Shown here in pieces: positions 20,838 to 47,328 of a stretch of 64,000 nt of DNA. Source of the stretch: Naegleria gruberi (taxonomy: Eukaryota); NCBI GenBank assembly GCA_000004985.1, contig GG738860.1; one strand, written 5' to 3'. The notes below the pieces were generated by a model that had not been told where the DNA came from, did not search any database, and saw nothing but the letters and a program-made list of their open reading frames with translations. Each line of letters opens with the position of its first letter. Position 1 is the first letter of the stretch. The position numbers and the translations under genes were made by a program.

Positions 20838-22362
20838 ATGTTGGCCATTCATCATCATCACAAACAACAAGAACACGAATTGGAAAGTCTAAAACAAAAT
20901 TATAAATTTAATATTGAAGCAGTTTTTGATCATGAAAGTGCTCGTGATTGTTTCCGAAAGTTTTTAAAGGATAATTTGAATGAAGATCCTTTCATGTTTT
21001 ATGAAATGGTTGAAAAGTATCAAAAAACAAGATTGGACAAGAATAGATTTGATATGGCTGTGGAAATTATGAATACTTTTATTGTTGTGAGTGCCAAACA
21101 TGAATTAAACTTGTCAATGACTATTAGAAATGATATTCTAAAGAATTGGAAGGTGATTCAGGAGCTAAATGAAGGGAAATCTGCTGAATTAATGGAATGT
21201 CCAACTGACTTGTTCCAAAAAGCTCAGAATGTCATCTTTTCCGAATTGAAACAAGATAATTTTCCAAGATTTATCGATTCTGAACAATTTGTAAAATATT
21301 TAAAGAAGGAAGCTAGAAAATCACAATTCAAGGGCTCACCAGCAACATTGTTAGACTTGTTGGGATCGAAAAAGGCAATGGAAAGGTCAGATAGTGGTCT
21401 ATCACATGAATTGACTGAATCCGGCTCTTTGGAAGACATGTCAGTGGTAGAAAACAAACCTTCAACTATTGCAGATAATGATAGACCTCTTGTTGATCCA
21501 CATTCTGTCTACATTTCATCAAAGGATTATGATATTGTGAATGAATTGATTTCTTCATTGAATGATAGTAGTAGATGGAAAGTAGTTGAAGAAAAGACAG
21601 GTATGAAAACATTGACCAGTGCTCATAATTATTATCTGAACCCATCAGATGGAGCTCTTCCTTTAATTTGTTTCACTGGTCTCGCTAAGGGAAATCACAA
21701 GGAATTATTTAATTTGATTTTTTCACAACATTTCGAAAAGAAAATGAGTGCTCTCCAAAAGAGGAAATTACAATTGGACTATATCAAAATTAATCCAGAG
21801 AATGGTGTGGATTATCCTAATTCAATAATTTACTCGGAACTCGATGTATGTATTCTTTTCAATTCTCAAATAATAATTAATTGAATTATTACAACAGACT
21901 CACTTTCCAATATCTAAAAGAGACCTAGTACTAGCCAAGACAGTTATACCAGATCTTTACAATCCAGAAACTGATGATTTTGATCGATATTCCATAATTC
22001 AGAAACCATGCACTCATCAAGATGCTCCAATCTCTAAGGAATTTATCAGAGTTTCACTCTTCTCAGCAATAATTGTAGAGAAAAAGACTAATGACACTTT
22101 GAGATACTACATGTTTGATTTTATGGATTTGAAAGGAAAAGTTCCAAAGAAACTCTTATCAGGAATTGCACGTTTTGCTGCTAAGGAATTTCATAAATAT
22201 CTCCAAAAACAATTTATCAATCCCAGAGATGGACGAATCAAATCACCCTCAGCCGATTCACCAACAGAAGAAGAATTATATAGCTCTGAAGGAATGGTTG
22301 AGTTGCTTCATGATCATATCAATTACATTCGAGAACACATTCTCCCAAAGAATACACTCTAA
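20838..22362 (+). CDS. RGS-domain protein with C-terminal START/Bet-v1-like lipid-binding domain, 2 exons (paralog A)
   Basis: Exon 1 is 20838..21845 (ends ...SELD at a GTATGT donor). The intron 21846..21897 is 52 nt. Exon 2 is 21898..22362. RGS signature: FDHESARDCFRKFLKDNLNEDPFMFYEMVEKYQK. The C-terminal exon (...YYMFDFMDLKGKVPKKLLSGIARFAAKEFHKYLQKQF) looks like a START domain end. A paralog lies at 49633..51190 on the minus strand. Confidence 0.65.
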
Positions 22363-22981
22363 TTTGTCTAAATTTAATTATGTTGTGAAGGACAAGTTTT
22401 TTGATAAACATAAATTCAAAGAGATTTATTATTGGAATCATAACTAAGGAAAGAAAGCATGTTATATGATGTTTGAAGTTTCAATTTCGATTTGATCAGA
22501 AAATAGAAAATGAGAAACCAAAACTTGCATCCATCAATTCAGGAGTTAAATATTCAATTTATAGAAGGGTGATCAACCTAATCAATATCTTCAAACAAAA
22601 CCTGAACCAACAAGATTCTGTCTTCGTTGCCTTCACTGTTCATACAGTCAAAGACTGTAGCGGGATTGTCGTCATATTCCTGGCAGGCTTCCCGTCCAAT
22701 GAAACCTAAAAGAATATCCAAAAATTAATGTTACTAAATTGTTAATAACTTAATTACTGAAAGTTTGTATTGAGTTGGTCGTGGATCGATTACAGAGCTT
22801 AATAGGTTAACCACTTTAAGTATTACTAAGTAGCATTAAGTTTTGCAAAGAAGTTCCATATTCTTTATATTCATTGCATTGATTTACCTTTGCTATTAAT
22901 CGTGACTCGTTATATTTGGAAAAGATTCGTCGTGCCAATGCTATCATGTTAATGGACACAATGGAAGATGATGAACTGAAT

Positions 22982-23100
22982 GGCTACGGCCATATCACGA
23001 TGAATGCACCTCATCCCGTCCGATTTGAGAAGTTAAGCATCGTCGAGCCACATCAGTACTGAGGTTGGAGACAACTTGGGAACCTGTGGTGCTGTAGTCT
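22982..23100 (+). rRNA. 5S ribosomal RNA gene (copy 1)
   Basis: GGCTACGGCCATATCACGATGAATGCACCTCATCCCGTCCGATTTGAGAAGTTAAGCATCGTCGAGCCACATCAGTACTGAGGTTGGAGACAACTTGGGAACCTGTGGTGCTGTAGTCT is 119 nt. Helix I pairs 5' GGCTACGG with 3' CTGTAGTC. It is very similar to D. discoideum 5S (CATCCCGTTCGATCTGATAAGT...AGTACTCTGGTTGGAGACAAC...GGGTGCTGTATACT). A T5 run follows at 23114..23118, consistent with a Pol III terminator. Confidence 0.85.
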
Positions 23101-23617
23101 ATTTAAATTCAACTTTTTAGATGTCGATTTTCAGAACAATTTGAAAGTTCAATAAACTTGTGAATAATTAATGCTTCAAAGCTTATAAAAAGTTTAACCA
23201 CAATTATTAATAGATTTTAAATTAATTGAATACATAGAGAGATCAACATTCATCATTCCATAGCAATCACACTGCAATCCAACAACCAAAGGTATCAGCA
23301 AAAGGCAACTTATGGGTTAGGGTATTCGATTGCTGTGAAGTGGGTACACTAGCTCAGTTGTCTTTTTTTCTATTTCCCAATCAATGAGTGCTTTTGGAGT
23401 ATGTTGATACATTTATTATTTACAAACTTTTTTGTTACAAATTTCAATCGAAATGCCTGAGAAATTTTTTAAAATGAAAGTGCCCAATCATTGATTATTT
23501 TCTCTATGGTTTTAAGAAATGAAACTTTGAAAATTGAATCTTAGCTAGATTACATATAATTTATCATATAATGATAAAATTAAATGTCAAATATAGGAGA
23601 TGGAGTCAAAAATTAAT

Positions 23618-23688
23618 CTCGAGTGCCGGGAATTGAACCCGGGTCGCCAGAGTGACAGTCTGGAATGCTACCACTATACCACACCCGA
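23618..23688 (-). tRNA. tRNA-Asp (anticodon GUC), copy 1
   Basis: Minus strand: TCGGGTG TG GTAT AGTGGTA GCAT T CCAGA CTGTCAC TCTGG CGAC CCGGG TTCAATT CCCGG CACTCGA G. It has a 7-bp acceptor stem (one G-U), a perfect anticodon stem, U33, GTC anticodon, A37, and a T-arm with TTCAATT loop. One D-stem mismatch. A T5 run follows the 3' end. Confidence 0.8.
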
Positions 23689-24251
23689 TTTCACATGTTG
23701 TATCACCAGTAACAGTATTTGTAGTTGTTCAAACGGATTACCATAAAAGGAACCTTAGTGTTTCTTTTTAATATAATTATACTTACATATATGTATACCT
23801 ACTGAGAATGGATCCATACAATCGATTACTCCAACGAACTAAATTTTGAATCTGCTAATTGTCAACAAATGATATTGTTAAACAAAATACAAACACTATG
23901 AAATGCACAACTTCATTCTAAACATTGTATTAGAAAAATTGGAAATAGGAAAGAATCGGTAAAATTGTCTCATAGTGATTCTCTCTTGTTTATGGCCATA
24001 AATACTTTTTTGGACAGTTTCGTATGAAATTGGGTTTTGTAATATTTATTTTCTATGACATGTCATGCATAATTTCTTGTACTTGCCATCTCAATGGCAC
24101 ACAAGGGTCACAACAAATTTTTTCTTCAAGAGGCACCACCTCCTTCTTGCTTGTTATTTCCAAATTTAAACTATGCGTGCTGTCAATAAACTGAAAAGCA
24201 AATGTCAAATGTTTTCTCTTCATCGCTTAAAAAAACAAACACACAATAACA

Positions 24252-27200
24252 ATGGCAATTGGAATCTCGTTCATTCCTTTGGCTAGTTACACAATTTTGT
24301 GTATTATCATGCTAATTGTTGTTGGTGGTGGACATGTTTCGTCAACATTAGCTGAAGAAACTAAACCTTTCCCAGTAATGAGAATGTTTAATTTGAAAGC
24401 AAGCCATCATTCCACCTCCACAACAAGTGATGATTCCATCTCCATGGTTTTAGGAAAGATTAAACAACTTCCTTTCATCCCAACTACCATGCACCCATTC
24501 ACCAGCAATTCCCAATTGACCAAAGCAATCGCTTCAGATCCTTACGATTTGGCTGAATATCCTCACTATAAGAAAGTCTCTGAACAACAAGTTAGAAGCA
24601 TGTACTCTAATATTGTCAATAGCAAAGCATCTAAAAGAAGTATCAAGAAAAATCTTGACATGTTGGTTACAGAAAGTGTTGATTATGTCAACTTGAATGA
24701 TGTTTCTCGTTTTTCAGCAATGGGATCTTTGCATAGATATTCTGTTGATGCAAATGTTTTATCAGGTGTTGCTTCATTGGATTATGAGCAAAATGTATGG
24801 GATGTCACATGTTCTGTCCTGTCAGATGAACAAACTGAAATTGTTGTTGATTTTGCAAATGGTCATACAACTGCCATGAAATGGGTACCAGGTACAAGAA
24901 TTATCATTGGAAAGCAATGGAATTGTTATGGTGATTTGACTGATCAACTTTACAATAAGGATCAAGCAAGATTTTACTTGATTTTGACAAGATCTATTAT
25001 CGTAACAGATGAAAACATGTTGAGAATTAAATTCCTCACACAACCACTCACCTTCTCTCAATTATTTATGAATGGTAGAGTTGAATATTCTTCCACACCT
25101 CTCTTGACAGAATCTTTGGACGAAACTAATGTTTTCACTCAAGGTGCATCTTCAAGAAGTCTCAGATCAAGAAAGGCACAATTTTCTTACACTAAAAGAA
25201 TGGCAGCATTCAATTTCAATTACAATGATGCAACTGGTCAACCTGTCAATGATGAAGTTACCATGTATGATCAGGATGGTTTGAAAATTATTTGTGAAAA
25301 GTGTTATGCTTATTTGAATACCGAATTCAGAGTAGAATTTGAGTTTTCATGGACTCAATTACAAGTTACCAAGGCAGAAGCATCTGTCGGTGGTCAATGG
25401 AAGGCAACTGCCAATGTCAAGGCCAGTATTACAAAATCTTTCCAAAAAAAGATTGGTCCAAACACTATTATTCAAACTCCACCAATTGGTTTGACATTCT
25501 TCATTTGGGTAATTCCAGTTTATGTAGATTTCACTCCAAAACTTCAATATTCCTTCAATTTCCAATTGACTGGTACTTTGGAATATTCCAGAAAGTTTGA
25601 TATGGCCTATGAGAAGTATATTGGTTTCTCATATACACCAGAAGCAGGTTATAATAAGGTTACTAGAGGTGATGATGCCATTTCCTTCACAAGTTCTTCA
25701 CCTGGTCTTCGTATTGAGCTCGATGGGTCAATTGAGGTTGCACTCATTCCAGCATTGGATATTACTTTCTATAAATTGGCAACAGTTTCGATTGGAATTG
25801 TGCCATCTTTGAAAGCAGATTTACATGCAGAAGGTATCATTTCCTCACTTGATAATTACAAGGCATTCGTTAGTGTCAAATGTTCTTACAAGATTGGTTT
25901 GACATTTGATGTTTTAATCAAGAACTTTGAATTTACTTTATTAGATTATCAACCAATTGAAAAATTGAGTGGAACCTATTCCATCCAATCAGCATCCTAC
26001 AAGGCAATCAATCCAAATGATCAAATCTATTCCAAAGATAATTTACTCCCAACCATTCCAGACACAGCAACAACTTCCAACACCATGTTCTCATTCGAAA
26101 TTAGTGGATTGACAGGTAATTACTACATGGAATATCAATATCAAGATATCAAATTGAGCCCATTGCTATACAGAACTGCACCAACTCAATCCTGTGTTTC
26201 AGGTTCTGTCTGTAAAATTGCCGAATTGAAACCTGACTTTAGTTATTCCTATCTTTACTTTAGATTTTTGAAGGATGTTCCATTGTGGTTTGATGATACT
26301 GTATTGGTGGATTATATTGAGCAGAAGAATTATGTTACTACTCAATCGAGTCAAACCATATTTGGTAATACTAATGCTAAAGTTATTGTAAAGCCAACTG
26401 ATTTGACAATTTCATTTTCGAATACTCCAACTAATTCGTTTAAATTACCAACTGGTATTAGTACTATTAATGTAAAATTATCTCCAATCAATAGTTTGTA
26501 TTACATTTCATTTACAACAGATAGTGCCATTTCCATCACAAACGTTGCCATGCAATTTAGCTCAGATTCGAATGGTTTCCATTATGCTTTCAATGGAACT
26601 CTTCCTGGAGGTACAATTTTAATTTCAAATTCTGTTTCTGACAATAATTTGAAATTCCATCAATATTTCTCATTTGATTTGACAAAGGAGAAACAAACTT
26701 TAACTCCGGCACCAACTCCTATTACAAGTATGAATGCTATTAGTTCATTCCTACAAGTGGTAAAGAAGAATTCTCCAAGATATGCCGTCTCTGCAAAGAT
26801 TAAAGGTAATTTCGTTGTCATGATCTTTGAAGGTTGGGACAATGGAGTTTCTTTCGTTCAAACTAAAGGAAGAAAGTTTAGTCAAACCTCAATTCCTATT
26901 AAGAATGGAAATGTCACTCTCACTGAGCCATTATCTTATTACTGGACTATTTCCATGGAAAATGACTTTGGTTCATCGAGTCATTACATTGCAGCTCAAT
27001 TCCTTCCTGTTGATTCGTATGGTTTCATATTGGAAAGTGTCAAGATTGATCCATATACTGAATTGAGTGTTTCAAGTTCTAATACTTTGGAGGATGTAGA
27101 CAATGCCATTATTAATCAAGTTTCTAGCGTTAATTTGTATCCTTACATGGCAGTTTCTAGACCAGATTCGAATAGTTTCACTGCCAGATTAGGTAACTCT

Positions 27201-28610
27201 GTATTTGATGTTTTTAACAATTTAAAGTCTCAAATCTCACTTTCCATTCAAAAATCTGCTCGTATCCCCATTGACAATTCCTATCTCAACGCCGACGGCT
27301 CATTAGCTCTTTCACTTTCCTCCTCAGCCAACGTTACAATCTTTAACAATTACAAATTATTGAATGGTATGGCATCTGTTGGAAAGAAATTCGAAAGTGC
27401 ACTTTCATTTGCAGTTTCATGTGATACCTTATTGAGTGTTATTGGTGATTTGAGTAGATCTGGTGATATTTTCATTAGAATTTTGGATGGGTTGACCAAT
27501 AGAGCTCTTGAAAATAGAGGATTTTCCATTAGTTTGGAATTGGCAAAACCAAACTCTGATATAGTTTCAATTCATATGGTTAATTCCAAATCTGGTTTGA
27601 ATGAGGCATTGTTTAATGTTGATTCACCTTCTAAAATCTTGAGTTCATGCAATTCGAATCCAACCTATTATGTCAGAGTTATTCTCACACGTTTGGATGT
27701 TTCTCTCTCAAGTAAGACAGTTCAAGTAGAATTCTCGTTCAGTAAGAAGGTTCTTAGCACTCTCCCACAAACAAGAAGTATTCTATCCGAATCCATTGAT
27801 CCAAAGACGAAAGGTATTTCCATTTTGGATTTGAGTGATTTAATTCAAAAAGAAAAGAGTTTGGGAAGTATTGGTATTGTATTGCAAGCTAATACTCAAA
27901 ACTGCAATATTGACATGTATATTAATAGTAATAATGCAAGTGCTCCTCCATCTTTCTTTGATCCAGCAACAATATTCGATTCCACTTCAAGAAATTCCCT
28001 CACTTATGAAGCATTGCCAATTTCCTTCCTTTCTTCATATGGTTCCAGTGTCATGCTTTATTCTGAAAGTGCATGTACTTTTGATTTATCCTATTCTCAA
28101 TTGAAACTTACCTATTTGACAATGAAATTTATAGATTTGAAGGGAAGTGCAGTTGATAGTGTGATTTTCTATTCAAACACCTCAACAACCATTCAATTAC
28201 TTATCAATGATGAAAATCATTCATTCGAAAAGACTTGGGTAACTTCACTTCAATCAAATCCATCATTGATTTTCTCAATTTTCAAATCTACAAAGAAATC
28301 AGATGGAACAGCAGCTAAATTGAGTGATTATTTCAAGAGTGCTGTTTGTAATTTAGTTAATGCTCAAACTCTTCAATTCGAAATGATTCCAAAGAGTGGA
28401 GTTGTCTTTACCAATATTTTATCAATTGAATTCAATGCTCAAAATTCAATGTTCACATCAAGATATAATTTGAGATCATCAAATGTTGTTAGTTTGGGAG
28501 AGAATGTTCAACCTATTGTTTACAAATCTACATCTTCTGGTCAACCAAAGGGAGGACAATCTGGAAGAATGAATGGAGGAAATGGCTTGAATTTGTTGTT
28601 GGTTTGTTAA
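24252..28610 (+). CDS. Large secreted or surface protein of unknown function (1452 aa; signal peptide, S/T/N-rich, possible GPI-type C-terminus)
   Basis: Single uninterrupted 4.36-kb ORF. N-terminal signal peptide or anchor: MAIGISFIPLASYTILCIIMLIVVGGGHVSS. It is rich in predicted beta-strand-like alternating segments with many N-x-S/T sites. It ends ...GQPKGGQSGRMNGGNGLNLLLVC, a short hydrophobic tail after a Gly/Ser-rich stretch. No known domain was recognised by eye. Its 5' flank is the shared 5S/tRNA repeat. Confidence 0.6.
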   Translation: MAIGISFIPLASYTILCIIMLIVVGGGHVSSTLAEETKPFPVMRMFNLKASHHSTSTTSDDSISMVLGKIKQLPFIPTTMHPFTSNSQLTKAIASDPYDLAEYPHYKKVSEQQVRSMYSNIVNSKASKRSIKKNLDMLVTESVDYVNLNDVSRFSAMGSLHRYSVDANVLSGVASLDYEQNVWDVTCSVLSDEQTEIVVDFANGHTTAMKWVPGTRIIIGKQWNCYGDLTDQLYNKDQARFYLILTRSIIVTDENMLRIKFLTQPLTFSQLFMNGRVEYSSTPLLTESLDETNVFTQGASSRSLRSRKAQFSYTKRMAAFNFNYNDATGQPVNDEVTMYDQDGLKIICEKCYAYLNTEFRVEFEFSWTQLQVTKAEASVGGQWKATANVKASITKSFQKKIGPNTIIQTPPIGLTFFIWVIPVYVDFTPKLQYSFNFQLTGTLEYSRKFDMAYEKYIGFSYTPEAGYNKVTRGDDAISFTSSSPGLRIELDGSIEVALIPALDITFYKLATVSIGIVPSLKADLHAEGIISSLDNYKAFVSVKCSYKIGLTFDVLIKNFEFTLLDYQPIEKLSGTYSIQSASYKAINPNDQIYSKDNLLPTIPDTATTSNTMFSFEISGLTGNYYMEYQYQDIKLSPLLYRTAPTQSCVSGSVCKIAELKPDFSYSYLYFRFLKDVPLWFDDTVLVDYIEQKNYVTTQSSQTIFGNTNAKVIVKPTDLTISFSNTPTNSFKLPTGISTINVKLSPINSLYYISFTTDSAISITNVAMQFSSDSNGFHYAFNGTLPGGTILISNSVSDNNLKFHQYFSFDLTKEKQTLTPAPTPITSMNAISSFLQVVKKNSPRYAVSAKIKGNFVVMIFEGWDNGVSFVQTKGRKFSQTSIPIKNGNVTLTEPLSYYWTISMENDFGSSSHYIAAQFLPVDSYGFILESVKIDPYTELSVSSSNTLEDVDNAIINQVSSVNLYPYMAVSRPDSNSFTARLGNSVFDVFNNLKSQISLSIQKSARIPIDNSYLNADGSLALSLSSSANVTIFNNYKLLNGMASVGKKFESALSFAVSCDTLLSVIGDLSRSGDIFIRILDGLTNRALENRGFSISLELAKPNSDIVSIHMVNSKSGLNEALFNVDSPSKILSSCNSNPTYYVRVILTRLDVSLSSKTVQVEFSFSKKVLSTLPQTRSILSESIDPKTKGISILDLSDLIQKEKSLGSIGIVLQANTQNCNIDMYINSNNASAPPSFFDPATIFDSTSRNSLTYEALPISFLSSYGSSVMLYSESACTFDLSYSQLKLTYLTMKFIDLKGSAVDSVIFYSNTSTTIQLLINDENHSFEKTWVTSLQSNPSLIFSIFKSTKKSDGTAAKLSDYFKSAVCNLVNAQTLQFEMIPKSGVVFTNILSIEFNAQNSMFTSRYNLRSSNVVSLGENVQPIVYKSTSSGQPKGGQSGRMNGGNGLNLLLVC

Positions 28611-28789
28611 TGACAATCTTGTTGAATATTGTTTTATTGTTGTAATTGAATAAAAACTTCATCTATTCATTGAATGATCATTGTGTATTAATGAATAATA
28701 ATAATTAATATTGAATTTAAATTGAAACACGGAAATGAAATTCTAAGATAGTAATTCCGAATACAAAAACAAAGAAAGACAAAACAAAA

Positions 28790-28870
28790 CGTTGAGGATG
28801 GGATTCGAACCCACGCGGATTACTCCACCAACTTAGCAGGCTGGCGCCTTAACCACTCGGCCACCTCAAC
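28790..28870 (-). tRNA. tRNA-Ser (anticodon GCU), class II with long variable arm
   Basis: Minus strand: GTTGAGG TG GCCGAGTGGTTAAGGC G CCAGC CTGCTAA GTTGG TGGAGTAATCCGCG TGGGTTCGAATCCCATCCTCAAC G. It has a 7-bp acceptor stem, GCT anticodon with U33 and A37, and a T-arm identical to eukaryotic tRNA-Ser. It is followed by TTTT. Confidence 0.85.
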
Positions 28871-29154
28871 TTCATGGCTAAACTAAGAAAATACTAAAGT
28901 CATGGTACGACAATCAAACCCTTAATGAACAGCTTCTTTTTCGTATCAACTGTTGAGGTGTTATTGGTTAGATTGTTTAATTGTTCAATACTGATTTAAG
29001 CTGTTTCTTAGGAGTATCACTTATCTTTCATTTGGTGGCCAAAGAATCTGTGTTCAACATACTGCTATAGATTAGATTCAGCCATTCAAATTTCAACAAA
29101 AGAAAGTATTGATTGATACCTCCGATTTCAGATAATATTTAATAAATTGCTGTT

Positions 29155-29820
29155 TTATTGAAGAACCTTCCCACAAGTCAACATGGAATGATCTTTACAA
29201 ACATTAGTTCGTCCATTCAAACTATACGTAAAACTATTAGCACTGCAACTTTCATCCTTCAAATAATAAGACCTTGTCCAAGTTGTTTGATTGCAGGAAA
29301 CCCTTTCGAATTCCTTTCCAGTAACTTGTTCACAATAATTTACATCTTCTCCAGCAATTGAAACCAAATTCCCAGAACAACTATTCTCTGCATCTATATA
29401 TTCAAATGAATAGGTGTACAATAAAGGAACTACAAGTTGTGGAATATTTCCACATCCGACATTTTGCATTCCACATTCATTCTTGTGAAATTTCCAATCG
29501 TAGACAGCATCACAATATTGGCAGTTACTGTCTACACAGTATGTATAGATGGTGGCTGAATCCTTTCCACAAACTGCCTTCATGTATTTGAAATGGGATG
29601 AGCTTTCAAAGTTTTGGAAACAAGTTCCATTTTGTCCATAAACAGGATAGATTTCAATAGCTGAAATAGATTGTTGATTGCATGAATTATCATGGTAGTA
29701 GATGGAGTAGGCGAAAGTGGTTGGTTTTTCGAGGGGTTGTTTTGCATGCAAGAAGGAAATGATTGCAAGAATGATGAAGAAGGTACAGAGGGAATAGTTT
29801 AGTTTCATCATTTTTTTCAA
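29155..29820 (-). CDS. Secreted cysteine-rich protein (221 aa, ~20 Cys), unknown family
   Basis: Signal peptide MKKMMKLNYSLCTFFIILAIISFLHA followed by a Cys-rich mature region (CNQQ...CFQNF...CGKDSATIYTYCVDSNCQYCD...CGMQNVGCGN...). Single ORF. Antisense small ORFs were rejected. Confidence 0.5.
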   Translation of the reverse strand: MKKMMKLNYSLCTFFIILAIISFLHAKQPLEKPTTFAYSIYYHDNSCNQQSISAIEIYPVYGQNGTCFQNFESSSHFKYMKAVCGKDSATIYTYCVDSNCQYCDAVYDWKFHKNECGMQNVGCGNIPQLVVPLLYTYSFEYIDAENSCSGNLVSIAGEDVNYCEQVTGKEFERVSCNQTTWTRSYYLKDESCSANSFTYSLNGRTNVCKDHSMLTCGKVLQ

Positions 29821-30569
29821 GTACTGATGTTCATCTACGCCAAATTAGCAAATATGTGTTCGAATGCCAAATCATGTCCTTCCTTATCATCTCCGTAGAA
29901 GAAGAGGTGTTTTGAAATAATGTCCATGCACAACCACATAGTGGTTCTATTTACGACGAATACCAAGCTTCTTTAACGAATATCCTTGCGAAGAGAAAGT
30001 TATAAATATTACAATACATCATCGCTTCAAAGGGGTTGTGCTTGCTGATATTGAATGATGTTGTATTATTGTCTTGTTGTTGTTACTCCGTTCATTGTCC
30101 ACAGTCAGGAAAAGTATTATAAATTTTTTTCTATATTATTAAATTATTATTTTGACAAAGAGGAGCAAGCAGGAACGAAACAAAACCAACAAAATGTATT
30201 CAATTTAATTGTTCAGGGTAAAGAAGAAAGAAAATTACTTGATATTGATTTTGACTTTTTTATTTAAATGTTTTTGGATTTTTAATTTTTTAAACAAGTC
30301 ACTCTTCTAGGATTATGTAAATATCAAGTTATTGTTGTTAGACTTGATAAATCCGAGAATCATCATTGGACCTGTTCTTTCAAAGTATGAGTAAATATAT
30401 CTTGAATAGTAACTACATGTTGTGTTAAAATTTGTATAAAAACTCTACAAGTGCTTTCGCAAAGTAATCTTAAACTGTACCAGTGATATGTGAAATGAAA
30501 TGGTTAATCAACAAAGATTGTGATCAGTTTCAACACAATCTTCTCCGCATCATTTCTCTAGTTTGATGT

Positions 30570-31334
30570 TTAAGCATTGGTCAATCTAGTCTTCAAGACA
30601 CGATCTTCCAAACAAACACAAAAGCTTGGAATATTGACAGTCTTTGGAAGTGGGCTGTTAATAGCAAAACAATCCCAATCATCTTCTTCTCTATCTTCAT
30701 CATTTACCAATTCAACTTCAATTTCATCACCTCTGACAGCAATAACTTTACCCAATTTACCTTGTAATTGTGGATCGACACTTTGGAGTAAAGCCATTTC
30801 ATCATCAACATTGATGAGGACTGTATCATTCTTCTTGAGTAATCTGCTTGTATTAGTATTAGAAACAAATCTCTTAATAGTTGATGATGAAGAAATAATT
30901 GAAGCACTTCTTGTAGATTGCATCTTCTTTTGCTTGTGAATACCTCTTGCTGTTGTATTATTTGATGATTGCATCATGGACATGAAGGAAATTCCCTGAT
31001 GTGGTTTATAAGATGAGGAGTACATATCCATTGAGGAATCATTATTATTCATCATTTGGTTACCAGTGGCATTAACTCTTTTCAAGAACATTTTGTATTG
31101 CGTTGTTGTTGGTTGCGTTGTTTTTTTTCGATGTGAAAATGTCTGATCGTTTTCCATAAATTTATTGCGTTTGTGCAAGTTCCACAAGCAACTGGCTTCC
31201 GCTGCGTGTTCAAAATCGAGCTTAAAATAGAACTTCAAAAATGTTTTGCTGCATACGGAATTCGTTTGGGCGCCAAAGAATTTGATGAGTGTGGAAAAAG
31301 GATTCCGTGAGAGTGAATCTTTTCTGCAAATCAA
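30570..31334 (-). CDS. Hypothetical protein (S/N/T-rich, acidic C-terminal beta-barrel-like segment); start codon uncertain (internal Mets at MENDQ / MFLKRV possible)
   Basis: 254-aa minus ORF. The C-terminal segment LINVDDEMALLQSVDPQLQGKLGKVIAVRGDEIEVELVNDEDREEDDWDCF looks globular. The remainder is low complexity. No family was assigned. Confidence 0.35.
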   Translation of the reverse strand: MICRKDSLSRNPFSTLIKFFGAQTNSVCSKTFLKFYFKLDFEHAAEASCLWNLHKRNKFMENDQTFSHRKKTTQPTTTQYKMFLKRVNATGNQMMNNNDSSMDMYSSSYKPHQGISFMSMMQSSNNTTARGIHKQKKMQSTRSASIISSSSTIKRFVSNTNTSRLLKKNDTVLINVDDEMALLQSVDPQLQGKLGKVIAVRGDEIEVELVNDEDREEDDWDCFAINSPLPKTVNIPSFCVCLEDRVLKTRLTNA

Positions 31335-31835
31335 AAAGATTGATCATCAATCTTTATGAAGCTATTACAATAATTGATTGTATTATCATTATTCAAATGA
31401 TCAACCACAAAAGATACAGTAAAGGTACCATTCCGAATATCACGACTATATGATTTGGTAAAGGTAGAGATGACTGATAGTTGAACAGCTTTCCATCTCA
31501 ACTGAAATTATCGGAAATTAATCTTCATCCAACAACATTCAATAATATTATTATTGAAAACAGTCTGCTTCATCCACTTTGAAATTAATAGAAACAACTT
31601 CTTCTACAACATTCAATATAATATTGAAAACAGCACTGCTTCATTGCCTTACTTGGTTTGGCTTCATTATAAACGCACTTTTCATTCCCTCACTAGAACT
31701 AGGGCTTTAAGGATTAGAACAGTACAACTATGGTTCATTGTTCGTGTCTCCTCTCCCTAACCTCAATAATGCAGGAATAATAATCCAACAACCAGAAGGA
31801 TAGAACATCAAGAGAAAAAAAGCTTTTGAGAAGAG

Positions 31836-33029
31836 ATGAATTATCTCCTTCAGGGATTTTCAGAAAAATCTTCATCTACTAACCAATCAATAATGAAAAA
31901 CAAGTCAAGAAAGGGGTGGAGCAATGCACTGTTCCTCCTTAACTACTTTATCATCATGATGATAATTTTACAAATATCAACCAATTACTACTGTTTGGCC
32001 ATTCCGAATGACAAGAACAAAACCCCTACATGTAAGAATGGAAGGCTTATTACAAATACCACTACTCCTCAACAATTTGCCTCAACCAAATGTTCATGTT
32101 TTAAGGGATATTCGGGAAGTGATTGTAACATACCAGTTTGTTTTGGATTGAAGGCAAGTTCAAAATCTGTATGTGGTGGCAAAGGTAACTCCAAATGTAT
32201 TGCTCCAGATACATGCATTAAAATCAATGAAGCAACAATCATGAAGCGATTTCAATCCAATGCTAAAGAGGACAGTTCATGTTCCAATCGTGGTCAAATG
32301 AGTAATGGTCAATGCATATGTAGTGAGGGATTCTATGGAGAATCTTGCGAATATTCTAATTGTTATGATACAGCTAGCCAGCTCACTTGTAGTGGAAGAG
32401 GAGAATGCTCCTCTGATAATATTTGCACTTGTAGAGAGAATGATATGTTTGGCGATAGATGTCAATACACACTCCCAGATAAGATTTATCAAAATGATGT
32501 TTGTGGGTCATGTATCATTGTGGCTGGTGTCAGTGGAGATGCTATTCCATCGAAGTATTCACTCTTGAACAATCCTACTGGACTATTTGTGGATGAAACA
32601 ACTGGTTTCATCTTTTTCGCAGATCAAGGCAATGCAAAGGCAAGAGTTCTCACAAGGGATGATACTATCTATTCGATTGCCTCTGTTTCCACACCAACTA
32701 GTATAGCATTCGATAAGAAAACAAGAGATGTCTATATTGGTACTAGAAATGGACTATTCAAATTGAACAGCAAGAGAGAACTCTCTAAATTGAACAGCTT
32801 GTATTGTAGCAGTGTCATTGTTAATGGTCAGGGACATGTTGTGTTTACACAGGGACCATATAACAAGATTTCAAAACTTGTAAATGGTGTGCAAGTTGAG
32901 GTGGCAGGGGATAATGACGGCGAAGGAAAATATGATGGTGACAACAAAGTGGCAACGGATGCAAGTGTCAACAATCCAGCTTATTTGAGCTACCATGCTG
33001 ACTCTGATACAATTTACTTTATGGACAGA
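31836..33029 (+). CDS. N-terminal fragment of a receptor-like protein: signal peptide, tenascin-type EGF-like Cys repeats, start of an NHL-repeat beta-propeller; truncated by assembly gap. Probably the 5' part of the receptor kinase resuming at 43232
   Basis: Begins MNYLLQGF..., with a hydrophobic signal or anchor (WSNALFLLNYFIIMMIILQISTNYYCLA). EGF-like modules follow (CSCFKGYSGSDCNIPVCFG..., CICSEGFYGESCEYSNCYD...CTCRENDMFGDRCQ). NHL-like blades come next (LLNNPTGLFVDETTGFIFFADQGNAKARVL...NNPAYLSYHADSDTIYFMDR). The frame is then cut by the 50-N gap at 33030. Confidence 0.6.
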
Positions 33030-33079
33030 NNNNNNNNNNNNNNNNNNNNNNNNNNNNNNNNNNNNNNNNNNNNNNNNNN
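33030..33079. other. Assembly gap (50 N)
   Basis: A run of exactly 50 N separates the receptor gene fragment from the second 5S/tRNA unit. Confidence 1.
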
Positions 33080-33087
33080 AACTGAAT

Positions 33088-33206
33088 GGCTACGGCCATA
33101 TCACGATGAATGCACCTCATCCCGTCCGATTTGAGAAGTTAAGCATCGTCGAGCCACATCAGTACTGAGGTTGGAGACAACTTGGGAACCTGTGGTGCTG
33201 TAGTCT
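33088..33206 (+). rRNA. 5S ribosomal RNA gene (copy 2)
   Basis: Identical to 22982..23100 (offset 10106 bp). Confidence 0.85.
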
Positions 33207-33723
33207 ATTTAAATTCAACTTTTTAGATGTCGATTTTCAGAACAATTTGAAAGTTCAATAAACTTGTGAATAATTAATGCTTCAAAGCTTATAAAAAGTT
33301 TAACCACAATTATTAATAGATTTTAAATTAATTGAATACATAGAGAGATCAACATTCATCATTCCATAGCAATCACACTGCAATCCAACAACCAAAGGTA
33401 TCAGCAAAAGGCAACTTATGGGTTAGGGTATTCGATTGCTGTGAAGTGGGTACACTAGCTCAGTTGTCTTTTTTTCTATTTCCCAATCAATGAGTGCTTT
33501 TGGAGTATGTTGATACATTTATTATTTACAAACTTTTTTGTTACAAATTTCAATCGAAATGCCTGAGAAATTTTTTAAAATGAAAGTGCCCAATCATTGA
33601 TTATTTTCTCTATGGTTTTAAGAAATGAAACTTTGAAAATTGAATCTTAGCTAGATTACATATAATTTATCATATAATGATAAAATTAAATGTCAAATAT
33701 AGGAGATGGAGTCAAAAATTAAT

Positions 33724-33794
33724 CTCGAGTGCCGGGAATTGAACCCGGGTCGCCAGAGTGACAGTCTGGAATGCTACCACTATACCACACCCGA
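33724..33794 (-). tRNA. tRNA-Asp (anticodon GUC), copy 2
   Basis: Identical to 23618..23688. Confidence 0.8.
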
Positions 33795-34261
33795 TTTCAC
33801 ATGTTGTATCACCAGTAACAGTATTTGTAGTTGTTCAAACGGATTACCATAAAAGGAACCTTAGTGTTTCTTTTTAATATAATTATACTTACATATATGT
33901 ATACCTACTGAGAATGGATCCATACAATCGATTACTCCAACGAACTAAATTTTGAATCTGCTAATTGTCAACAAATGATATTGTTAAACAAAATACAAAC
34001 ACTATGAAATGCACAACTTCATTCTAAACATTGTATTAGAAAAATTGGAAATAGGAAAGAATCGGTAAAATTGTCTCATAGTGATTCTCTCTTGTTTATG
34101 GCCATAAATACTTTTTTGGACAGTTTCGTATGAAATTGGGTTTTGTAATATTTATTTTCTATGACATGTCATGCATAATTTCTTGTACTTGCCATCTCAA
34201 TGGCACACAAGGGTCACAACAAATTTTTTCTTCAAGAGGCACCANCTCCTTCTTGCTTGTT

Positions 34262-37200
34262 NNNNNNNNNNNNNNNNNNNNNNNNNNNNNNNNNNNNNNN
34301 NNNNNNNNNNNNNNNNNNNNNNNNNNNNNNNNNNNNNNNNNNNNNNNNNNNNNNNNNNNNNNNNNNNNNNNNNNNNNNNNNNNNNNNNNNNNNNNNNNNN
34401 NNNNNNNNNNNNNNNNNNNNNNNNNNNNNNNNNNNNNNNNNNNNNNNNNNNNNNNNNNNNNNNNNNNNNNNNNNNNNNNNNNNNNNNNNNNNNNNNNNNN
34501 NNNNNNNNNNNNNNNNNNNNNNNNNNNNNNNNNNNNNNNNNNNNNNNNNNNNNNNNNNNNNNNNNNNNNNNNNNNNNNNNNNNNNNNNNNNNNNNNNNNN
34601 NNNNNNNNNNNNNNNNNNNNNNNNNNNNNNNNNNNNNNNNNNNNNNNNNNNNNNNNNNNNNNNNNNNNNNNNNNNNNNNNNNNNNNNNNNNNNNNNNNNN
34701 NNNNNNNNNNNNNNNNNNNNNNNNNNNNNNNNNNNNNNNNNNNNNNNNNNNNNNNNNNNNNNNNNNNNNNNNNNNNNNNNNNNNNNNNNNNNNNNNNNNN
34801 NNNNNNNNNNNNNNNNNNNNNNNNNNNNNNNNNNNNNNNNNNNNNNNNNNNNNNNNNNNNNNNNNNNNNNNNNNNNNNNNNNNNNNNNNNNNNNNNNNNN
34901 NNNNNNNNNNNNNNNNNNNNNNNNNNNNNNNNNNNNNNNNNNNNNNNNNNNNNNNNNNNNNNNNNNNNNNNNNNNNNNNNNNNNNNNNNNNNNNNNNNNN
35001 NNNNNNNNNNNNNNNNNNNNNNNNNNNNNNNNNNNNNNNNNNNNNNNNNNNNNNNNNNNNNNNNNNNNNNNNNNNNNNNNNNNNNNNNNNNNNNNNNNNN
35101 NNNNNNNNNNNNNNNNNNNNNNNNNNNNNNNNNNNNNNNNNNNNNNNNNNNNNNNNNNNNNNNNNNNNNNNNNNNNNNNNNNNNNNNNNNNNNNNNNNNN
35201 NNNNNNNNNNNNNNNNNNNNNNNNNNNNNNNNNNNNNNNNNNNNNNNNNNNNNNNNNNNNNNNNNNNNNNNNNNNNNNNNNNNNNNNNNNNNNNNNNNNN
35301 NNNNNNNNNNNNNNNNNNNNNNNNNNNNNNNNNNNNNNNNNNNNNNNNNNNNNNNNNNNNNNNNNNNNNNNNNNNNNNNNNNNNNNNNNNNNNNNNNNNN
35401 NNNNNNNNNNNNNNNNNNNNNNNNNNNNNNNNNNNNNNNNNNNNNNNNNNNNNNNNNNNNNNNNNNNNNNNNNNNNNNNNNNNNNNNNNNNNNNNNNNNN
35501 NNNNNNNNNNNNNNNNNNNNNNNNNNNNNNNNNNNNNNNNNNNNNNNNNNNNNNNNNNNNNNNNNNNNNNNNNNNNNNNNNNNNNNNNNNNNNNNNNNNN
35601 NNNNNNNNNNNNNNNNNNNNNNNNNNNNNNNNNNNNNNNNNNNNNNNNNNNNNNNNNNNNNNNNNNNNNNNNNNNNNNNNNNNNNNNNNNNNNNNNNNNN
35701 NNNNNNNNNNNNNNNNNNNNNNNNNNNNNNNNNNNNNNNNNNNNNNNNNNNNNNNNNNNNNNNNNNNNNNNNNNNNNNNNNNNNNNNNNNNNNNNNNNNN
35801 NNNNNNNNNNNNNNNNNNNNNNNNNNNNNNNNNNNNNNNNNNNNNNNNNNNNNNNNNNNNNNNNNNNNNNNNNNNNNNNNNNNNNNNNNNNNNNNNNNNN
35901 NNNNNNNNNNNNNNNNNNNNNNNNNNNNNNNNNNNNNNNNNNNNNNNNNNNNNNNNNNNNNNNNNNNNNNNNNNNNNNNNNNNNNNNNNNNNNNNNNNNN
36001 NNNNNNNNNNNNNNNNNNNNNNNNNNNNNNNNNNNNNNNNNNNNNNNNNNNNNNNNNNNNNNNNNNNNNNNNNNNNNNNNNNNNNNNNNNNNNNNNNNNN
36101 NNNNNNNNNNNNNNNNNNNNNNNNNNNNNNNNNNNNNNNNNNNNNNNNNNNNNNNNNNNNNNNNNNNNNNNNNNNNNNNNNNNNNNNNNNNNNNNNNNNN
36201 NNNNNNNNNNNNNNNNNNNNNNNNNNNNNNNNNNNNNNNNNNNNNNNNNNNNNNNNNNNNNNNNNNNNNNNNNNNNNNNNNNNNNNNNNNNNNNNNNNNN
36301 NNNNNNNNNNNNNNNNNNNNNNNNNNNNNNNNNNNNNNNNNNNNNNNNNNNNNNNNNNNNNNNNNNNNNNNNNNNNNNNNNNNNNNNNNNNNNNNNNNNN
36401 NNNNNNNNNNNNNNNNNNNNNNNNNNNNNNNNNNNNNNNNNNNNNNNNNNNNNNNNNNNNNNNNNNNNNNNNNNNNNNNNNNNNNNNNNNNNNNNNNNNN
36501 NNNNNNNNNNNNNNNNNNNNNNNNNNNNNNNNNNNNNNNNNNNNNNNNNNNNNNNNNNNNNNNNNNNNNNNNNNNNNNNNNNNNNNNNNNNNNNNNNNNN
36601 NNNNNNNNNNNNNNNNNNNNNNNNNNNNNNNNNNNNNNNNNNNNNNNNNNNNNNNNNNNNNNNNNNNNNNNNNNNNNNNNNNNNNNNNNNNNNNNNNNNN
36701 NNNNNNNNNNNNNNNNNNNNNNNNNNNNNNNNNNNNNNNNNNNNNNNNNNNNNNNNNNNNNNNNNNNNNNNNNNNNNNNNNNNNNNNNNNNNNNNNNNNN
36801 NNNNNNNNNNNNNNNNNNNNNNNNNNNNNNNNNNNNNNNNNNNNNNNNNNNNNNNNNNNNNNNNNNNNNNNNNNNNNNNNNNNNNNNNNNNNNNNNNNNN
36901 NNNNNNNNNNNNNNNNNNNNNNNNNNNNNNNNNNNNNNNNNNNNNNNNNNNNNNNNNNNNNNNNNNNNNNNNNNNNNNNNNNNNNNNNNNNNNNNNNNNN
37001 NNNNNNNNNNNNNNNNNNNNNNNNNNNNNNNNNNNNNNNNNNNNNNNNNNNNNNNNNNNNNNNNNNNNNNNNNNNNNNNNNNNNNNNNNNNNNNNNNNNN
37101 NNNNNNNNNNNNNNNNNNNNNNNNNNNNNNNNNNNNNNNNNNNNNNNNNNNNNNNNNNNNNNNNNNNNNNNNNNNNNNNNNNNNNNNNNNNNNNNNNNNN

Positions 37201-40200
37201 NNNNNNNNNNNNNNNNNNNNNNNNNNNNNNNNNNNNNNNNNNNNNNNNNNNNNNNNNNNNNNNNNNNNNNNNNNNNNNNNNNNNNNNNNNNNNNNNNNNN
37301 NNNNNNNNNNNNNNNNNNNNNNNNNNNNNNNNNNNNNNNNNNNNNNNNNNNNNNNNNNNNNNNNNNNNNNNNNNNNNNNNNNNNNNNNNNNNNNNNNNNN
37401 NNNNNNNNNNNNNNNNNNNNNNNNNNNNNNNNNNNNNNNNNNNNNNNNNNNNNNNNNNNNNNNNNNNNNNNNNNNNNNNNNNNNNNNNNNNNNNNNNNNN
37501 NNNNNNNNNNNNNNNNNNNNNNNNNNNNNNNNNNNNNNNNNNNNNNNNNNNNNNNNNNNNNNNNNNNNNNNNNNNNNNNNNNNNNNNNNNNNNNNNNNNN
37601 NNNNNNNNNNNNNNNNNNNNNNNNNNNNNNNNNNNNNNNNNNNNNNNNNNNNNNNNNNNNNNNNNNNNNNNNNNNNNNNNNNNNNNNNNNNNNNNNNNNN
37701 NNNNNNNNNNNNNNNNNNNNNNNNNNNNNNNNNNNNNNNNNNNNNNNNNNNNNNNNNNNNNNNNNNNNNNNNNNNNNNNNNNNNNNNNNNNNNNNNNNNN
37801 NNNNNNNNNNNNNNNNNNNNNNNNNNNNNNNNNNNNNNNNNNNNNNNNNNNNNNNNNNNNNNNNNNNNNNNNNNNNNNNNNNNNNNNNNNNNNNNNNNNN
37901 NNNNNNNNNNNNNNNNNNNNNNNNNNNNNNNNNNNNNNNNNNNNNNNNNNNNNNNNNNNNNNNNNNNNNNNNNNNNNNNNNNNNNNNNNNNNNNNNNNNN
38001 NNNNNNNNNNNNNNNNNNNNNNNNNNNNNNNNNNNNNNNNNNNNNNNNNNNNNNNNNNNNNNNNNNNNNNNNNNNNNNNNNNNNNNNNNNNNNNNNNNNN
38101 NNNNNNNNNNNNNNNNNNNNNNNNNNNNNNNNNNNNNNNNNNNNNNNNNNNNNNNNNNNNNNNNNNNNNNNNNNNNNNNNNNNNNNNNNNNNNNNNNNNN
38201 NNNNNNNNNNNNNNNNNNNNNNNNNNNNNNNNNNNNNNNNNNNNNNNNNNNNNNNNNNNNNNNNNNNNNNNNNNNNNNNNNNNNNNNNNNNNNNNNNNNN
38301 NNNNNNNNNNNNNNNNNNNNNNNNNNNNNNNNNNNNNNNNNNNNNNNNNNNNNNNNNNNNNNNNNNNNNNNNNNNNNNNNNNNNNNNNNNNNNNNNNNNN
38401 NNNNNNNNNNNNNNNNNNNNNNNNNNNNNNNNNNNNNNNNNNNNNNNNNNNNNNNNNNNNNNNNNNNNNNNNNNNNNNNNNNNNNNNNNNNNNNNNNNNN
38501 NNNNNNNNNNNNNNNNNNNNNNNNNNNNNNNNNNNNNNNNNNNNNNNNNNNNNNNNNNNNNNNNNNNNNNNNNNNNNNNNNNNNNNNNNNNNNNNNNNNN
38601 NNNNNNNNNNNNNNNNNNNNNNNNNNNNNNNNNNNNNNNNNNNNNNNNNNNNNNNNNNNNNNNNNNNNNNNNNNNNNNNNNNNNNNNNNNNNNNNNNNNN
38701 NNNNNNNNNNNNNNNNNNNNNNNNNNNNNNNNNNNNNNNNNNNNNNNNNNNNNNNNNNNNNNNNNNNNNNNNNNNNNNNNNNNNNNNNNNNNNNNNNNNN
38801 NNNNNNNNNNNNNNNNNNNNNNNNNNNNNNNNNNNNNNNNNNNNNNNNNNNNNNNNNNNNNNNNNNNNNNNNNNNNNNNNNNNNNNNNNNNNNNNNNNNN
38901 NNNNNNNNNNNNNNNNNNNNNNNNNNNNNNNNNNNNNNNNNNNNNNNNNNNNNNNNNNNNNNNNNNNNNNNNNNNNNNNNNNNNNNNNNNNNNNNNNNNN
39001 NNNNNNNNNNNNNNNNNNNNNNNNNNNNNNNNNNNNNNNNNNNNNNNNNNNNNNNNNNNNNNNNNNNNNNNNNNNNNNNNNNNNNNNNNNNNNNNNNNNN
39101 NNNNNNNNNNNNNNNNNNNNNNNNNNNNNNNNNNNNNNNNNNNNNNNNNNNNNNNNNNNNNNNNNNNNNNNNNNNNNNNNNNNNNNNNNNNNNNNNNNNN
39201 NNNNNNNNNNNNNNNNNNNNNNNNNNNNNNNNNNNNNNNNNNNNNNNNNNNNNNNNNNNNNNNNNNNNNNNNNNNNNNNNNNNNNNNNNNNNNNNNNNNN
39301 NNNNNNNNNNNNNNNNNNNNNNNNNNNNNNNNNNNNNNNNNNNNNNNNNNNNNNNNNNNNNNNNNNNNNNNNNNNNNNNNNNNNNNNNNNNNNNNNNNNN
39401 NNNNNNNNNNNNNNNNNNNNNNNNNNNNNNNNNNNNNNNNNNNNNNNNNNNNNNNNNNNNNNNNNNNNNNNNNNNNNNNNNNNNNNNNNNNNNNNNNNNN
39501 NNNNNNNNNNNNNNNNNNNNNNNNNNNNNNNNNNNNNNNNNNNNNNNNNNNNNNNNNNNNNNNNNNNNNNNNNNNNNNNNNNNNNNNNNNNNNNNNNNNN
39601 NNNNNNNNNNNNNNNNNNNNNNNNNNNNNNNNNNNNNNNNNNNNNNNNNNNNNNNNNNNNNNNNNNNNNNNNNNNNNNNNNNNNNNNNNNNNNNNNNNNN
39701 NNNNNNNNNNNNNNNNNNNNNNNNNNNNNNNNNNNNNNNNNNNNNNNNNNNNNNNNNNNNNNNNNNNNNNNNNNNNNNNNNNNNNNNNNNNNNNNNNNNN
39801 NNNNNNNNNNNNNNNNNNNNNNNNNNNNNNNNNNNNNNNNNNNNNNNNNNNNNNNNNNNNNNNNNNNNNNNNNNNNNNNNNNNNNNNNNNNNNNNNNNNN
39901 NNNNNNNNNNNNNNNNNNNNNNNNNNNNNNNNNNNNNNNNNNNNNNNNNNNNNNNNNNNNNNNNNNNNNNNNNNNNNNNNNNNNNNNNNNNNNNNNNNNN
40001 NNNNNNNNNNNNNNNNNNNNNNNNNNNNNNNNNNNNNNNNNNNNNNNNNNNNNNNNNNNNNNNNNNNNNNNNNNNNNNNNNNNNNNNNNNNNNNNNNNNN
40101 NNNNNNNNNNNNNNNNNNNNNNNNNNNNNNNNNNNNNNNNNNNNNNNNNNNNNNNNNNNNNNNNNNNNNNNNNNNNNNNNNNNNNNNNNNNNNNNNNNNN

Positions 40201-43200: not shown

Positions 43201-43231
43201 NNNNNNNNNNNNNNNNNNNNNNNNNNNNNNN
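34262..43231. other. Assembly gap (8970 N)
   Basis: Continuous N run. All giant ORFs reported across it (34130..43276, 34159..43266, 34171..43431, 34197..43394, 34200..45386, 34232..43288) are poly-X artefacts. Confidence 1.
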
Positions 43232-47305: not shown

Positions 47306-47328
47306 GTGAGCAGTGGTTCTTCTTCCAA

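Follow-up and report, generated by a model that had tools for sequence, protein, structure and literature searches.

NAEGRDRAFT_79262 of Naegleria gruberi, a probable anchored surface protein from a family restricted to Heterolobosea

The DNA analyzed here is a stretch of 64,000 nucleotides from Naegleria gruberi contig GG738860.1 (assembly GCA_000004985.1), hereafter the window, and the subject is the gene NAEGRDRAFT_79262 at 24252..28610. This gene, labelled "hypothetical" and seemingly an orphan, defines a conserved Heterolobosea family that includes a protein of the pathogen N. fowleri. We show here that NAEGRDRAFT_79262 is a member of this previously undescribed family, which is restricted to Heterolobosea, and that its product is, with a probability of roughly 0.7, an anchored surface protein of this lineage-specific group. 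An earlier note on the same DNA had described an orphan secreted protein driven from inside a duplicated 5S/tRNA unit, and its claims are taken up below where the results bear on them. The gene, its upstream region and the predicted parts of its product are as follows.

24252..28610, plus strand: protein-coding gene NAEGRDRAFT_79262, an open reading frame (ORF) with an ATG start, 1452 residues as assembled
23689..24251, no strand assigned: intergenic region from tRNA-Asp to the ATG, 563 bp, with short ORFs of chance size only
24252..24344, plus strand: predicted signal peptide, residues ~1-31, followed by the family motif FPxxRMF (from Kyte-Doolittle hydropathy and homolog leaders)
24471..25103, plus strand: N-terminal alpha/beta domain, residues ~74-284, with motifs VWDV.C, W.PGT and W.C (from AlphaFold and conserved columns)
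25236..25991, plus strand: central domain, residues ~329-580, with ~10 very long antiparallel beta strands (from AlphaFold and conservation)
26352..28481, plus strand: C-terminal half, residues ~701-1410, probably a string of beta-sandwich (jelly-roll) modules
28583..28645, plus strand: hidden C-terminal hydrophobic tail WLEFVVGLLMTILLNIVLLL and stop, in the -1 frame

The ORF at 24252..28610 is a real, intronless N. gruberi gene. At ~34% G+C, stops are expected at ~7% of random codons by a rough estimate, and therefore an open frame of 1452 codons is not due to chance. Indeed, a word-index homology search found the product 100% identical to the NCBI "hypothetical protein NAEGRDRAFT_79262 [Naegleria gruberi]", whose record is placed on a 536,960-bp contig. 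The ATG at 24252 is backed by homologs, in which a hydrophobic leader is likewise followed by conserved FPxxRMF and LPFIPT.MHPF motifs. The intronless 1452-residue ORF described in the earlier note is thus confirmed. Neither internal repeats in the protein nor paralog remnants within the window were found when looked for, and exact-protein look-ups of NAEGRDRAFT_79262 and its paralog matched no contigs. The genes around the ORF are of the usual eukaryotic kinds (RGS, TPR, EGF/REJ/kinase), and NAEGRDRAFT_79262 would itself be an ordinary RNA polymerase II (Pol II) gene. Its promoter and 5' untranslated region (5'UTR) must lie within 23689..24251, because this 563-bp stretch is what separates the gene from its upstream neighbor, irrespective of any duplication. 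For the same reason the proposal that the gene is driven from within a repeat finds no support.

The orphan status of the protein did not survive. A word-index search with the full protein had returned the self-match only, a picture overturned by an exhaustive HMMER search with residues 31-1230 as query against 1.84 billion representatives. This search recovered 34 relatives, 15 of them with E<1e-10 and 6 with E<1e-30. The closest is a paralog within N. gruberi, NAEGRDRAFT_75303 (1399 residues, 34% identity, E 1.6e-165), followed by C9374_006138 of N. lovaniensis (E 1.4e-115) and ABK040_014697 of Willaertia magna (1472 residues, E 6.5e-71). These top three matches span ~1100-1190 residues and include both the N-terminal domain and the FNYD...CxxCYA domain. 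Further relatives come from N. fowleri (FDP41_000179), Percolomonas sp. WS and Pharyngomonas kirbyi. All named source organisms are Heterolobosea, the other matches being environmental or Logan contigs. Distant members align mainly over residues ~310-550 (query residues 280-520). A word-index profile search with the family alignment brought up bacterial proteins that are unrelated to the family and were matched via accessory domains of its distant members. The earlier note had suspected a second copy of the gene in an assembly gap of the window; the diverged paralog NAEGRDRAFT_75303 is carried by another contig, 326,815 bp long.

Some of the deposited models of relatives appear to be incomplete. 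The N. lovaniensis model C9374_006138 has no N-terminus (locus ~5650..5935 of PYSW02000026.1), and directly upstream of it, in another frame, lie a leader, MTKVFCLTLVAALLLLVSVVVVV, and the motifs FPxSRMF and LPFIPTSMHPF; a frameshift or a short intron has thus cut this model short. The N. lovaniensis locus is not syntenic with that of NAEGRDRAFT_79262, and no 5S or tRNA gene occurs within 6 kb on either side of it. The N. fowleri protein FDP41_000179 has 618 residues, which match the N-terminal ~300 and the C-terminal ~300 residues of the family; the ~800-residue middle is absent, and either the gene is mis-modelled or it is degenerate in the pathogen.

The predicted architecture begins with a leader. 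Kyte-Doolittle hydropathy reaches 2.0-2.45 in 19-residue windows starting at residues 1-16, with 2.45 over residues 7-25, and a hydrophobic leader also opens the homologs P0002, P0005, P0007, P0008 and P0018, in agreement with the signal peptide noticed earlier from the sequence. Pfam finds no domain in NAEGRDRAFT_79262, as the earlier note had also stated, nor in the core of seven relatives. The structure prediction which that note had called for was carried out with AlphaFold on residues 30-720 and a 31-sequence alignment, and gave a model of mean predicted local distance difference test (pLDDT) 72.8 with two confident domains. The first is the alpha/beta domain at residues ~74-284, corresponding to model residues 45-255 with pLDDT mostly 80-95. 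The second is the central domain, whose strands of 20-40 residues alternate hydrophobic and polar side chains (pLDDT 80-94). It opens with FNYD...CxxCYA, in which C348 and C351 are nearly invariant, and no other part of the family is conserved as widely. The C-terminal half, residues ~701-1410, is conserved among Naegleria and Willaertia only.

No solved structure matches this model. Foldseek comparison of the residue 30-720 model with solved structures gave only matches with E >= 0.014 and template modelling (TM) scores <= 0.1, and the family profile matched PDB sequences only spuriously, through low complexity in TCERG1. The leading non-significant Foldseek matches are pore-state MACPF hairpins. 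More broadly, the top structural neighbors of the central domain, again non-significant, are outer-membrane barrels, pore-state MACPF/CDC hairpins and the sheets of the LLTP proteins (vitellogenin/MTP), all of them large amphipathic antiparallel sheets, like the central domain with its ~10 strands of alternating polarity. As far as the model can tell, these neighbors reflect a generic likeness among large sheets, and they demonstrate no family membership; no MACPF/CDC or aerolysin-type pore-former signature was found by Pfam, by Foldseek or by the profile search against PDB. The likeness of the C-terminal modules to beta-sandwich binding modules (collagenase PPC/collagen-binding domains, CBMs, the SID1 ectodomain) is likewise one of fold class only, with 5-8% sequence identity, a low-confidence model and no Pfam match.

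Contrary to the heavy N-glycosylation potential proposed earlier, the family avoids N-glycan sites. For NAEGRDRAFT_79262 the composition predicts 19.2 +/- 3.7 N-X-S/T sequons; the protein contains 6, and none of 2000 composition shuffles was as low as 6. All six lie after residue 780, leaving the first 780 residues sequon-free. The relatives that were counted are similarly depleted.

P0002: 8 sequons observed, 17.8 expected
P0003: 8 observed, 16.2 expected
P0005: 11 observed, 18.2 expected
P0009: 1 observed, 7.9 expected
P0017: 3 observed, 10.2 expected

Across NAEGRDRAFT_79262 and these five proteins the count is 0.13-0.6 of expectation. As a control, 22 other ORFs of the window together have 117 sequons against 111.7 expected (~1.05), and this set includes the neighboring receptor ectodomain (9 vs 7.0 and 13 vs 9.6). 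One may speculate that the avoidance reflects a surface that packs, oligomerizes or contacts lipid. Together with the unmatched N-terminal fold, it is the sole feature of the protein that might repay experiments on Naegleria surface biology.

The family also appears to be anchored at its C-terminus. A glycosylphosphatidylinositol (GPI) signal consists of a small-residue omega site, a short polar spacer and 15-20 hydrophobic residues at the extreme C-terminus. The full-length relatives P0002, P0003, P0005, P0015, P0018 and P0030 end in a hydrophobic tail of 13-20 residues, and P0009 and P0022 carry a transmembrane segment followed by a cytoplasmic tail. The assembled ORF of NAEGRDRAFT_79262, which stops at 28608..28610 and has the C-terminus ...GGQSGRMNGGNGLNLLLVC, ends in 7 hydrophobic residues only (...GLNLLLVC). 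It does not match the GPI signal pattern, and the in-frame stretch is too short to serve as the signal for a GPI or membrane anchor. From 28493 onward the -1 frame stays open; it reads ...KWLEFVVGLLMTILLNIVLLL up to a stop at 28643..28645 and contains a hydrophobic run of 17 residues (Kyte-Doolittle 2.84). Any 1-nucleotide (1-nt) insertion within 28555..28605 would fuse this tail to the ORF, giving a 1464-residue protein that ends in ...LLMTILLNIVLLL. The end corrected in this way, ...GGQSGRMNGG(K)WLEFVVGLLMTILLNIVLLL, would match the GPI signal pattern. The zone 28555..28605 holds three homopolymer runs (AAA at 28580, TTT at 28592, TTT at 28603). A homolog-like tail lying just out of frame points to a 1-nt assembly indel, or a very recent mutation, near 28555..28605 that conceals the anchor signal of the family. 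The GPI-anchor-like tail ascribed to the ORF is thus absent from it as assembled, but a tail like those of its homologs stands in the -1 frame, in a family that appears to be C-terminally anchored. The present gene model of NAEGRDRAFT_79262 probably lacks the true C-terminal anchor signal owing to a 1-nt indel.

Taken together, these features suggest how the protein could be built and displayed. It would enter the endoplasmic reticulum through its N-terminal signal peptide and be retained at the surface by a C-terminal hydrophobic signal, either of GPI type or a tail anchor, as in its relatives; surface anchoring is in this sense a prediction from sequence. The new alpha/beta domain and the ~250-residue sheet of long strands would form a membrane-distal head, kept free of N-glycans. 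This head would be carried on a stalk of beta-sandwich modules, followed by a Ser/Gly-rich linker and then by the C-terminal anchor signal. A specific binding or adhesion role may be predicted from the architecture alone; we regard it as tentative, with somewhat less than even odds.

This predicted organization resembles that of lineage-specific GPI surface families of protists, such as trypanosomatid and ciliate antigens, and of fungal GPI cell-wall adhesins. The likeness lies in an N-terminal signal peptide, a large ectodomain whose distal head sits on a stalk of modules, a short Ser/Gly-rich stretch before the C-terminal hydrophobic signal, and confinement to one lineage, with paralogs. However, NAEGRDRAFT_79262 has no sequence or fold relationship with any of them. 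It also differs in having few Cys (14 in 1452 residues), no tandem repeats and an avoidance of N-glycan sites. The family has few members, 2 paralogs being known from N. gruberi, and GPI attachment is here a prediction.

Several points weigh against reading NAEGRDRAFT_79262 as an anchored surface protein with a binding head. The protein as assembled has no anchor signal and would be secreted, or its gene decaying, if the frameshift is real. The binding or adhesion role is a prediction from architecture, and the model of the C-terminal half that supplies the stalk is weak (pLDDT 55.6, 8 sequences). An adhesin of the surface-glycoprotein type would not usually avoid N-glycan sites so strongly. 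Finally, a literature search found no paper that mentions any accession of the family.

The gene lies in a region with RNA polymerase III (Pol III) genes, an exact repeat and assembly gaps, and these have to be considered in judging how many copies of it exist. The relevant features are listed here.

22982..23100, plus strand: 5S rRNA copy 1 (Rfam RF00001, 105.4 bits)
23618..23688, minus strand: tRNA-Asp(GTC) copy 1 (ARAGORN and Rfam)
28790..28870, minus strand: tRNA-Ser(GCT), 180 bp past the stop codon of NAEGRDRAFT_79262 (ARAGORN and Rfam)
31836..33029, plus strand: 5' part of a receptor-kinase-like gene, with leader, EGF repeats and first propeller blades (EGF_Teneurin; weak six-bladed propeller matches)
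33080..34261, plus strand: copy 2 of the repeat, a contig island between 50 N (33030..33079) and 8970 N (34262..43231)
33088..33206, plus strand: 5S rRNA copy 2 (Rfam RF00001, 105 bits)
33724..33794, minus strand: tRNA-Asp(GTC) copy 2 (ARAGORN and Rfam)
43233..49434, plus strand: continuation of the receptor-kinase gene, with further NHL blades and EGF repeats, then a REJ domain and a protein kinase

The repeat is 1182 bp long, 22974..24155 being identical to 33080..34261 except for one N at 34245, and the second copies of the 5S and tRNA-Asp genes are accordingly identical to the first, 10,106 bp downstream. Copy 2 lacks unique bases on both sides. Where it "ends", there is an assembly gap each time, and therefore the repeat unit has no defined boundaries. 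The N at 34245 stands 17 bp before the island ends, as would be expected if the contig end were formed by the low-quality tail of a read. Within the window the adjacent locus is the sole other copy of the unit. As 5' flank of NAEGRDRAFT_79262, the stretch that occurs twice is 23689..24155, in line with the earlier note except that it ends at the start of the gap (24155) and not at 24143. That end point and the notion of a discrete 5S/tRNA module alike follow from the positions of the gaps. The short ORF MKLGFVIFIF..., which had been reported in both copies, spans 24024..24194 (56 residues) and overruns the end of copy 2, so that its first 44 codons alone occur twice. It was considered as a coding upstream ORF and rejected, being chance-sized and opposed by an equally long ORF of 56 residues on the other strand (24053..24223).

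The island is surrounded by the two parts of the receptor-kinase gene. The ORF at 31836..33029 is still open where the 50-N gap begins, its last residues being ...DSDTIYFMDR, and the frame at 43233 opens right after the 8970-N gap in NHL blades (TEN_NHL E 2.6e-12, NHL 1.4e-07). When the two ends were abutted and aligned with multi-NHL proteins, taken from a homology search for paralogs of the receptor kinase that was dominated by bacterial NHL proteins, the best alignments put an insertion of 9-11 residues exactly at the junction ("IYFMDR-----------TGTIAKV" against "IFFADNYNHRIRLVTKITGIIATVAG"). Therefore only ~30 bp (~10 codons) of the receptor-kinase gene seems to be missing. Judging from these frames, the 50 N, the island and the 8970 N together form a block within a single NHL blade of one gene. 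The receptor-kinase gene itself has more than six NHL blades and a Ser/Thr/Tyr kinase, and it appears to be cut by a 172-N gap (44789..44960) as well.

Two origins of the island come into question: it would be an artefact of the assembly, or else the part still visible of an identical 10.1-kb tandem duplication that collapsed. The rest of the unit (24156..33079) amounts to 8924 bp against a gap of 8970 N, and the post-gap contig resumes ~96 bp after 33029 in copy-1 coordinates; this geometry fits either possibility. We favor the view that copy 2 would be a redundant contig of 1.2 kb that was put into a gap of the scaffold, presumably because a few reads from 22974..24155 were assembled twice and their mate pairs positioned them ~9 kb upstream of where sequence resumes after the gap. 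A second copy of the gene in the gap, as the earlier note suspected, would fit almost exactly. However, any copy hidden there would be identical rather than diverged, and would comprise the whole 10.1 kb, well beyond the 1452-residue gene.

A real and very recent tandem duplication of ~10.1 kb (22974..~33060), its second copy collapsed in the assembly, is a serious alternative that we nevertheless consider rather doubtful. It would give two identical sets of the 1452-residue gene, 5S, tRNA-Asp, tRNA-Ser and two small genes, and would leave the first receptor-kinase copy cut short at the junction. The offset of 10106 bp, the gap nearly as long as the 8924 bp left in the unit, and the resumption of sequence ~96 bp past the contig end at 33029 all suit it, as do the ~10 codons that the protein alignment finds missing at the break. 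A break of only ~30 bp under Sanger coverage would also suggest a conflict of reads at a repeat boundary rather than a shortage of reads. However, the island does not include any junction sequence and does not differ from copy 1, it is about as long as one or two Sanger reads with a low-quality N near its end, and the upstream contig is separated from it by a 50-N spacer instead of running on as continuous sequence. In addition, copy-1 reads assembled twice and placed by their mates give the same geometry.

The next alternative concerns the anchor itself. If the 3' frameshift were real, the anchor would have been lost, and this paralog would encode a soluble product or be a gene starting to decay. 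We regard this as unlikely, though well worth keeping in mind. The assembled ORF does end after 7 hydrophobic residues with the homolog-like tail out of frame. However, the remainder of the 4.36-kb ORF is intact, and the hydrophobic tail is still open for 17 codons with its own stop, as expected of an error in the assembly or of a mutation that is still very young; the three homopolymer runs in the 28555..28605 zone also speak against a real frameshift.

A further alternative gives the sequon-free N-terminal half a different task, as a module acting on membranes or lipids, with an amphipathic sheet that forms pores or binds lipid, instead of an adhesin head. The very long strands with their hydrophobic/polar alternation would suit such a module. 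The first 780 residues are without sequons, and the best structural neighbors are membrane beta-barrels, pore-state MACPF hairpins and the lipid-binding sheets of MTP/vitellogenin. However, the protein carries no family motif of any known pore former, and we judge this reading improbable. A broader version, in which the proteins form a Heterolobosea-wide anchored class whose head and 250-residue amphipathic sheet are kept N-glycan-free for lipid binding or insertion, or for tight packing in a lattice, is to our mind just as much of a long shot. If true, the family, including N. fowleri FDP41_000179, could act in contact-dependent interactions with prey or host cells.

That NAEGRDRAFT_79262 is an orphan driven by a self-copied mobile 5S/tRNA Pol III module, with a diverged copy in the gap, is very improbable: the 5' flank of the gene does lie within twice-occurring sequence, but the protein has 34 relatives, the edges of the repeat are assembly gaps (N runs), copy 2 sits inside another gene, the N. 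lovaniensis homolog has no Pol III genes nearby, the diverged paralog NAEGRDRAFT_75303 is on another contig, and 100% identity predicts an identical hidden copy, not a diverged one. Nor does the 1182-bp repeat, as seen within the window, have any of the hallmarks of a mobile element that were looked for (defined termini, target-site duplications, terminal repeats, an A-rich or repeat tail, copies in unrelated contexts). About 279 5S genes have been described in N. gruberi (PMC3369914), and therefore a 5S gene beside any one gene is unremarkable. The 5S rRNA and tRNA genes near NAEGRDRAFT_79262 would be Pol III genes of the ordinary dispersed kind. The apparent 5S/tRNA duplication of this scaffold should not be taken to support mobile Pol III modules.

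A few other features of the window may be mentioned. A Cys-rich protein of 218 residues with a signal-like leader and no Pfam match is encoded at 29158..29811 on the minus strand. The identical 218-residue protein occurs on a 2.5-kb contig of the ENA metagenome assembly ERZ929261 (run ERR1078381). This contig is ~98% identical to 28780..31285 of the window and ends at the tRNA-Ser gene, short of NAEGRDRAFT_79262; sample ERR1078381 therefore contains a close relative of N. gruberi. Two RGS-domain genes, at 20838..21884 (plus strand) and 50096..51190 (minus strand), are inverted relative to each other, share ~80% DNA identity over 946 bp and form a diverged local paralog pair that flanks the whole region. 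Lastly, a tandem repeat with a 72-bp period (56419..57096, ~9 copies, 80-87% identical) lies inside an ORF at 56416..57522 on the minus strand.

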